From Eledone cirrhosa (lineage: Eukaryota), in assembly GCA_964016885.1 (NCBI GenBank), contig OZ024741.1, positions 12,028,001-12,092,000 of the forward strand: DNA of 64,000 bases. Direction: 5' to 3'. Below the pieces are notes generated by a model. It made no database searches and was not told where the DNA came from. It was given only the letters and a program-made list of their open reading frames with translations. The first letter of the stretch is position 1. Each line of letters starts with the position of its first letter. Positions 32,797 through 34,250 of the stretch are shown here, piece by piece. A program made the translations under genes and the position numbers.

Positions 32797-33132
32797 TATA
32801 TATATATATATATATATATATATATATATATATATATATATATATATATATATATATATATATATATATATATATATATATATATGTATATATATATATA
32901 TGATGTATGTATATATATATATATATATATATATATATATATATATAATGTATGTATATATATATATATATATATATATATATATAAATATATATATACA
33001 CATATATATATATATATATATATATATATATATATATATATATATATATATATATATACAAATATATATATATATATATATATATATATATATATATATA
33101 TATATATATATATATATATATATATATATATA
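32797..33132. repeat. (TA)n microsatellite
   Basis: Directly visible; other (TA)n tracts at 29881-29952, 33323-33388, 33764-33858 and 34026-34066. Confidence 0.98.
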
Positions 33133-33458
33133 GGAACAAGTATGACCCCGACGGCAGAGCTCAAGCCGTTTCGACGGCTAATTCTGGACAGAATTAGCCG
33201 TCGAAACGGCTTGAGCTCTGCCGTGGGGGTCACACTTGTTCCTATTACCCACTCTACTACTCTAAGTATTGAGTACTTTGGTGCATTATGGTCCATCTGG
33301 TTCCTTACCACATTTCCTTCGTTATATATATATACATATATATATATATATATATATATATATATATATATATATATATATATATATAGAAAAAAAGATG
33401 AAATCAAGAATGCAACTGGAGTCTTATTTTTTTTTTTTAATTTATATTTATTTGGTTC

Positions 33459-33494
33459 CTTTACCGGTTTCGCAGTTCTTCTGCTTTTCAAAAT
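33459..33494 (-). ncRNA. Minimal type I hammerhead motif, family A (inverted arm copy)
   Basis: Reverse complement of 33589-33624 with a weaker stem I. Confidence 0.5.
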
Positions 33495-33588
33495 TAGAGT
33501 TGAGATGGAGGGTCTGTGGTTTTTCTCACATCTGATGTTTTTCTCATCCAGATGTGAGAAAAACCACAGGCCCTCCATCTCAACTCTA

Positions 33589-33624
33589 CTTTTGAAAAGC
33601 AGAAGAACTGCGAAACCGGTAAAG
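33589..33624 (+). ncRNA. Minimal type I hammerhead motif, family A (U3-A8 core, palindromic ACCGGU stem III)
   Basis: CUU-UUGAAAA-GCAG aagaa CUGC-GAAA-CCG-GUA-AAG; predicted cut after A33621. Confidence 0.62.
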
Positions 33625-34250
33625 GAACCAAATAAATATATATATATTTTAAATTAAGACTCCAGTTGCATTTTCGATTTCATCTTTTTATCTTTATACT
33701 TTCACTCGTGTAGGACACCTCGGTTATTTTTCATTTTGTAAAAAAAAACCTCACTTTCTAATAATATATATATATATATATATATATATATATATATATA
33801 TATATATATATATATATATATATATATATATATATATATATATATATATATATATATAATATAAGATCAAAAGATGGTTAAAGGAGTTCCATATATTTTA
33901 TTATGGAACTCCTTTAACCATCTTTTGATCTTATATTATGCATACTCCAGTCCCACAAACTGTAGAGTGCTTCTTATCCGATATCTGCATTGCTTTATTG
34001 TACTACAATAAAACTCACCTCCTACATATATATATATATATATATATATATATATATATATATATATTGAAATAGAGCTTATATAGTATGAATATTGTTT
34101 CCTACACTTAATATGCATGTGTGACCATTGGTTTCAGAGTCCAGTTATGTTCACCACTGTATATTGGAGTAGGCCCAACTGAGCCCTCATGGGCCACTTG
34201 AACATGTGCGAGTGCTCGATGAGGGGGTTAGTTTGGAAGAGCCTACTCCA

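Follow-up and report, generated by a model that had tools for sequence, protein, structure and literature searches.

Insertions of Penelope-like elements (PLEs) are described as 5'-truncated, often lying beside an inverted copy that is itself 5'-truncated and bearing a tail of 30-40 bp at one end (PMC8557442). The same source places hammerhead ribozymes in the pLTR, gives (TA)n as the target of elements of the Naiad, Hydra and Neptune types, points out that a target-site duplication is unreadable inside (TA)n and states as open how PLEs make their inverted copies and tails. Palindromes at inverted junctions have also been reported and were read, in a proposal of 2013, as the outcome of self-priming on an antisense template (PMC3846280). 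Furthermore, new PLE insertions tend to fall within or next to earlier ones (PMC6765202), and U3-A8 covariation in the hammerhead core occurs in the PLEs of schistosomes (PMC4209133). The purified protein of the lizard PLE named PAc cleaves and extends both strands of AT-rich DNA in vitro, and its reverse transcription starts at two sites on the RNA, the tail being the stretch between them (PMC11167929).

The window analysed here, a stretch of 64,000 nucleotides from Eledone cirrhosa, contains a cluster of short insertions that can be compared with these systems. The initial annotation had delimited, within 33131-34026, three consecutive and unrelated modules of equal polarity, separated by (TA)n and each opening with a fold-back palindrome whose right arm runs on into extra sequence up to a (TA)n tract. 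In module 1, the arms 33133-33186 and 33189-33242 are identical at 52 of 54 bases, with a perfect core of 36 nt and a 2-nt loop. The inverted, tail-less arm of this module (33133-33189, minus strand) exceeds the direct arm by 3 nt at the turn, 1 of which the two share, and the direct arm (33189-33322, plus strand) comprises the 3' half of the predicted family-1 hammerhead and a tail of 80 nt (33243-33322). The arms of module 2, at approximately 33389-33537 and 33545-33692, measure some 148 nt each and present 122 matches and 5 substitutions when one A/TA run is left out of the count; they enclose a 7-nt loop with a 1-nt bulge, and the direct part of the module (33545-33761, plus strand) continues into a 69-nt tail that ends at 33761. 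Module 3 consists of an inverted, tail-less arm at 33856-33893 (minus strand), the outer 3 nt of which merge with the TA tract, and of a direct arm followed by an 89-nt tail at 33902-34025 (plus strand), with 38 of 38 bases identical between the arms (33856-33893 and 33902-33939) and an 8-nt loop. The longest perfect arms of modules 1, 2 and 3 (36, 21 and 35 nt) compare with at most 9, 11 and 13 nt in 200 dinucleotide shuffles per module, TA flanks excluded, and together with the arm identities they bear out the three palindromes; the tails of 69-89 nt likewise confirm the continuation of the right arm up to (TA)n. The modules do share one polarity, although in a symmetric target this is expected of three insertions with a chance of 1 in 4 and is not significant. 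All three present an inverted 5'-truncated copy head-to-head with a direct copy, and in all three the arms come within 2-8 nt of each other at the turn, which implies that one arm was copied from the other or that both ran off the same RNA end. The description of the modules as unrelated holds insofar as BLAST finds no cross-match among modules 1, 2 and 3, and alignments among their tails give no real match, but modules 1 and 2 have a variant of the hammerhead core in common. By eye, the tails of family 2 and family 3 have similar terminal words, made up of an A-run and a pyrimidine-rich segment.

Tracts of (TA)n were located on both sides of every module, as had been proposed: one of 336 nt at 32797-33132, the likely target, and others at 33323-33388 (between modules 1 and 2), 33764-33863 (between modules 2 and 3) and 34026-34067 (after module 3). 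A BLAST search against the TA-masked window retrieved three more copies to the left, so that the limits first assigned to the cluster contain the modules but fall short of its full extent. Copy X (32432-32796, plus strand) is a tail-less, 365-nt piece of family 1 that includes a predicted full hammerhead at 32696-32779. Copy B (30360-30804, minus strand), which may extend towards 30872, belongs to the same family and keeps the full 80-nt tail and a predicted hammerhead at 30540-30457. Copy B2 (30173-30348, minus strand) is a tailed piece of family 2, truncated at the start of the hammerhead (30346-30317), devoid of an inverted arm and flanked by TA runs on both sides. For family 3, represented by module 3, BLAST found no second copy in the window; nor did it find there any full-length copy of the three families, the pieces spanning up to about 510 nt of the 3' end.

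The ends of these copies coincide to a considerable extent. The tail-less ends of X and of the inverted arm of module 1 fall on the same base, at a site where 3 nt match the TA flank, and the tailed ends of B and of the direct arm of module 1 fall on the same base after a common 80-nt tail; the tailed ends of module 2 and B2 also coincide. The copies thus fall into two fixed end classes, tailed and tail-less, with the tail on one copy only, as in PLEs, though the tail is longer than 30-40 nt. The turn point does vary, as the initial annotation had anticipated: in family 1, the turn lies 54-57 nt from the tail-less end for module 1 and 365 nt for copy X. Both arms of module 1 share three differences with respect to X, and the same three with respect to B, which points to a single template lineage distinct from X and B. 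The latter two align with 359 matches, 5 substitutions and 2 indels, and could together form one palindrome with a spacer of 1.6 kb (340 nt once a Helitron is removed). In addition, family 1 has a motif of 15-18 nt at its tail-less end that recurs in similar form about 56 nt downstream, close to the tailed end (30360-30450, minus strand; 33233-33322, plus strand), and that is a candidate protein-binding or start signal.

The proposal of repeated insertion into (TA)n is supported by all six pieces (X, B, B2 and modules 1-3), the 3' ends of which adjoin TA runs, in keeping with the (TA)n insertion bias of PLEs of the Hydra and Neptune clades. Four of them (X and modules 1-3) lie on the same strand along one TA-rich stretch, and the two of opposite strand, B and B2, occupy another TA site 0.3 kb away once the Helitron is removed. 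In a scan of the 32 TA tracts of the window, short non-microsatellite fold-backs that start at the tract edge were found only at modules 1-3, the long-range pairs B/X and B/module 1 also scoring. The order family 1 - TA - family 2 appears twice, in B/B2 and in modules 1/2. Its co-duplication as a unit was considered and is disfavored, since the family-1 and family-2 copy pairs have diverged unequally (9 of 134 versus 2 of 154 aligned bases, with the A/TA run left out; Fisher p = 0.027) and module 2 contains sequence that is missing from B2. As judged from these alignments, the same two observations favor B/B2 and modules 1/2 being independent insertions.

The surrounding DNA is animal-like and repeat-rich, with satellites, LINE-type reverse transcriptase (RT) frames and a Helitron. 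Between B and X, and outside the modules, lies a non-autonomous Helitron-like element (31061-32347, plus strand) whose ends are 96% and 97% identical to those of the larger Helitron around 20287-28297, of which it is a derivative; it includes six 93-bp tandem units (31522-32076), and a second Helitron-5'-like end is found near 31509 on the minus strand. The larger Helitron (20287-28297, minus strand), apparently intact, carries a frame of 1598 aa (22155-26951) with Helitron_like_N and PIF1 domains, and 37-bp repeats near both ends; an exact look-up of its protein returned no match. At 18444-20157 (minus strand) there is a 5'-truncated LINE-type RT fragment (RVT_1), flanked on either side by (TA)n and bearing a 31-bp end duplication (18396-18458), that is, a second, non-PLE retroelement in a TA tract; its RT has 2755 relatives at E 1e-30 or better, among them a ctenophore sequence at 58-62%. 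Two or more tandem LINE copies, putatively L1/Tx1-like, occupy 6689-16368 (minus strand) with endonuclease-like and RT frames (RVT_1 for 11713-13881). Satellites cover 1-6048, 16493-17832, 34446-35176 and 38772-63998 and comprise 16-bp repeats (two blocks), 61-bp repeats (12 copies) and a 45-bp array of 25 kb with extreme strand skew. Finally, 34250-34450 matches 2069-2266 at 78%, and represents an unrelated interspersed repeat inside the 16-bp satellite.

A type I hammerhead layout is predicted for families 1 and 2, on the strand that has the tail as its 3' end, the motif being carried by that strand in B, B2 and module 2. In the copy B version, the predicted family-1 hammerhead has a GUC site, with stems I and III of 5 and 6 bp and a stem II domain of 54 nt. 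The family-2 hammerhead is predicted to be minimal: stem I spans 3 bp, stem II spans 4 bp and stem III is palindromic. It is found in module 2 both at 33592-33621, in the direct arm, and as a motif at 33491-33462, in the inverted one. Core position 3 is U in both families and position 8 is A in four of the five copies; in X, position 8 is G, which gives U3 a wobble partner. The cores of both families begin 100 nt upstream of the tail-less end, and the distance from the predicted cleavage site to the end amounts to 17 and 71 nt for tail-less ends and to 97 and 140 nt for tailed ones. A descriptor composed after viewing the sequence gave three matches over the two strands of 6001-38000, all within these families, whereas 200 shuffles of the region 30101-34100, stripped of TA, gave none; a looser pattern gave five matches in 30100-34100, again all within these families. 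Rfam searches found no hammerhead, even at E values of up to 5-10. Over 30000-34300, at E up to 5, they returned 34 matches, all below the gathering score and mostly to microRNA models on hairpins or TA tracts, and two narrower rescans returned four and one weak matches (including MALAT1, at 19.8 bits against a cut-off of 70) that were rejected as chance; from the standpoint of annotation, such stubs yield false microRNA-hairpin matches. Drawn as a hammerhead, family 1 folds at -22.1 kcal/mol versus a minimum of -25.0 and is not the minimum-energy fold, and the folding z-scores are weak (-0.74, -1.91 and -0.71). The family-3 piece, in which no more than 38 nt remain upstream of the tail-less end, has no detectable hammerhead. 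On these structural models, families 1 and 2 are predicted to carry in their pLTR, on the sense strand, a type I hammerhead, and that of family 1 is a candidate for a monomer-active ribozyme in an animal PLE.

It is therefore likely, considering anatomy, shared end points and predicted ribozyme motifs jointly, that modules 1-3 are 5'-truncated insertions of three families of Penelope-like retrotransposons, and in their identity as PLEs we have high confidence. Families 1 and 2 agree with PLEs in every feature that the pieces allow to be assessed, and module 3 is assigned by its anatomy only. A Penelope-like origin had already been suggested, and the ribozyme motifs and common end points now add to its support. 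No PLE reading frame was detected: Pfam is blank for six short frames from the modules and their relatives, and a 45-aa family-1 frame has no protein relatives. One frame is nevertheless open across each tail (30361-30495, minus strand, 45 codons; 30175-30288, minus strand, 38 codons; 33929-34024, plus strand, 32 codons), which would be expected if the tail lay in the start of the ORF, as in PAc, chance being the alternative; as the start of a PLE protein, the tails find no Pfam match in these short frames and no relatives for the 45-aa one. A new kind of hairpin retroelement, which the initial annotation had envisaged, is not what the locus reveals. Its anatomy, its (TA)n target and the self-priming idea are already in print (PMC8557442, PMC3846280), and the structure itself, as known PLE anatomy, holds no surprise for a specialist.

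How such insertions are made is a separate question. Our main reading, to which we assign a probability of roughly 0.55, is that each of them was made by two cDNAs primed from opposite (TA)n strands, the tail-less one of which folded back. A protein combining GIY-YIG and RT activities would nick both strands of a (TA)n tract; one nick would prime at the outer start site of the RNA and generate the tailed end, and the other would prime at an inner site, 69-89 nt upstream, and generate the tail-less end. Both end classes are observed here as fixed positions, and it is their origin in two start sites that we infer. The tail-less cDNA would stop early, turn with a loop of 2-8 nt and copy itself, as two family-1 junctions suggest, after which its new sense end would anneal to the tailed cDNA and fill-in would produce the inverted arm, the direct arm and the tail. 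With (TA)n left on both sides of each insertion, later families could land in the same tract.

The choice of the tail-less cDNA as the one that snaps back is favored by the loop of module 1, the module in which a longer copy allows the origin of the loop to be read. This loop prolongs the inverted, tail-less arm, which exceeds the direct arm by 3 nt and has 1 nt in common with it. The choice is also favored by a fold-back at the 5' end of X, in which 32426-32431 pairs with 32435-32440 around a 3-nt loop of element sequence (32426-32440 overall). The 2-nt loop match of module 1 has a probability of 1 in 16 by chance, and 6-bp fold-backs occur at 0.9-1.1% of positions in 20001-32000; the X stem is weak in folding, 14 of 200 shuffles being as good, and can equally be a 7-bp target duplication shared with 30796-30802 if B and X were one palindrome split later. 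As for the tail-less end, family 2 has an internal TA run, of 12 nt in the direct arm and 5 nt in the inverted one, which the latter passes to end at a site with 1 nt of TA match; copy X passes eight TA/AT runs of at least 3 nt. Hence the tail-less end was not chosen by TA microhomology, internal runs having been passed by both, and on the sequence evidence a protein-defined start site would explain its fixed position better than repair. Snap-back of the cDNA with self-priming, as put forward in the initial annotation, is thus retained in part: self-priming is kept, on the tail-less cDNA, and the version based on the first cDNA is disfavored by the loop of module 1. Taken by itself, snap-back would leave unexplained the fixed, family-specific stop of the inverted arm short of the tail, which the two start sites described for PAc do explain (PMC11167929). 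In the literature searched, which excluded subscription papers and with them the original PLE reviews, the model of a tail-less snap-back is not stated.

The same PLE insertions might have arisen with no snap-back at all, both cDNAs copying the same 5'-broken RNA to its end and having their 3' ends end-joined, in a form of twin priming. Such a process would account for the symmetric arms, for the three variants common to the arms of module 1, for the fixed tail-less end and for the 1-nt overlap at the turn of module 1. It is also in line with the extension of both strands by PAc (PMC11167929), and B and X could then be the two ends of one event that captured a 340-nt spacer, as is described to happen between pLTRs (PMC3846280); the 6-bp fold-back at the 5' end of X, however, would go unexplained unless due to chance (about 1%) or to target duplication, and we regard this route as rather unlikely. 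Lower still we place the strict form of snap-back, the one of the initial annotation, in which the first, tailed cDNA folds and copies itself and the copy joins the far (TA)n end. Symmetry and head-to-head orientation would follow from it, self-priming on an antisense template has been proposed before (PMC3846280), and the tail-less ends do match the TA flank by 3, 3, 1 and 3 nt. Yet it predicts a loop derived from the direct arm, when that of module 1 comes from the inverted one, and leaves the stop at a fixed site, in disregard of a better internal TA run, unaccounted for, all of which makes it a doubtful candidate.

Long (TA)n tracts can extrude cruciforms and break, and the palindromes could in principle have originated after insertion, through template switching during replication or repair beside these fragile tracts. 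The TA-like bases at which the arms end would fit this origin, but two copies of family 1, independent of each other, terminate on one base, the arm of family 2 runs past its best TA microhomology and, among the 32 TA tracts of the window, short edge fold-backs exist only at modules 1-3, so that we deem it very improbable. Chimeras of assembly or amplification can be viewed with even greater scepticism: assembly is difficult where hairpins adjoin long (TA)n (PMC8557442) and the arms of module 3 are identical, but the arms of module 1 differ by 2 substitutions and those of module 2 by 5, and the arms stop at family-specific sites common to other copies instead of running into the flank. An equally slight probability attaches to MITE-like DNA transposons or non-LTR retrozymes, a non-autonomous PLE derivative being counted here within the PLE explanation. 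Inverted arms, TA flanks and the lack of a coding frame are shared with such elements, and retrozymes carry hammerheads (10.64898/2026.07.22.740005). Against MITEs, the inverted repeats are not terminal, a family tail lying outside one arm, an inverted arm is missing from B2, 5' truncation makes the lengths differ and the turn point varies; against retrozymes, BLAST of the window reveals no head-to-tail monomers, the copies being head-to-head or solitary.

Returning to two-strand priming with fold-back of the tail-less cDNA, a broader and more speculative reading can be postulated, which we advance tentatively and consider on balance unlikely. According to it, these stubs would record the formation of PLE inverted copies, with both strands priming at the ends of an unusually long tail of 70-90 nt and the snap-back of the tail-less cDNA providing a bridge that captures the tailed one; X would be an aborted intermediate, and the families would constitute an undescribed (TA)n-targeting lineage with U3-A8 hammerheads. 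If this were true, the family-1 ribozyme, with its 6-bp stem III, could be active as a monomer, in which it would differ from those typical of animal PLEs, and the spread of end positions in Hydra-clade consensuses would reflect the same long tail. In any event, very short insertions keep both ends and the turn within 200-400 nt and offer a test bed for the formation of inverted copies, and the origin of the loop over thousands of such stubs in this genome would tell snap-back from twin priming without bench work.

Among known systems, the endonuclease-bearing (EN+) PLEs of the Hydra and Neptune clades show the same 5' truncation, the same head-to-head inverted 5' copy and an optional tail, together with a hammerhead near the 3' end, as predicted here, and a (TA)n target (PMC8557442). 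Within them, Penelope-13_HM combines an inverted 5' copy with a hammerhead on both strands, like module 2. The Hydra-clade hammerheads of File S2 in that work all have a C3 core, whereas the families described here have U3, and the tails of 69-89 nt are about twice the 30-40 nt stated there for PLEs. Four short exact motifs from the three families are absent from its consensus files, from which a diverged match could escape. In 24 Hydra-clade consensus rows of its Files S1 and S2 (the Chlamys and PLE-X rows, Penelope-18_HMa and the reverse-strand row of Penelope-13_HM being left out), and assuming that the listed position is the start of the 20-nt flank, the cleavage site lies 30-70 nt from the end in 12, 88-153 nt in 11 and 355 nt in one, which suggests that long tails are normal in this clade. 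Naiad PLEs have the same (TA)n target, inverted copies and tail, but are described without a canonical hammerhead (PMC8557442), in contrast to the complete predicted motif of families 1 and 2, which sets these two families apart from Naiad.

There are other parallels. PAc, a Poseidon element of Anolis carolinensis, has the same two end classes separated by the tail, with a hammerhead upstream and an AT-rich target, although its tail is of the short type and lies inside the reading frame, the open frames across the tails reported here having no protein relatives (PMC11167929). The Penelope families of Adineta vaga display the same inverted pLTR beside a direct one, junction palindromes and a tail on one copy, with a 31-bp tail in Pen2a and measurable target duplications of 8-10 bp; unlike them, the insertions of this locus target (TA)n and stack several families in one tract (PMC3846280). 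Lastly, the minimal PLE hammerheads of Schistosoma mansoni resemble that of family 2 in their short stem I, palindromic stem III, U3-A8 core and predicted action as dimers, whereas family 1, whose stem III has 6 bp and whose stem II domain has 54 nt, appears closer to the large-helix-III forms of fungal and protist PLEs than to typical animal ones (PMC4209133).
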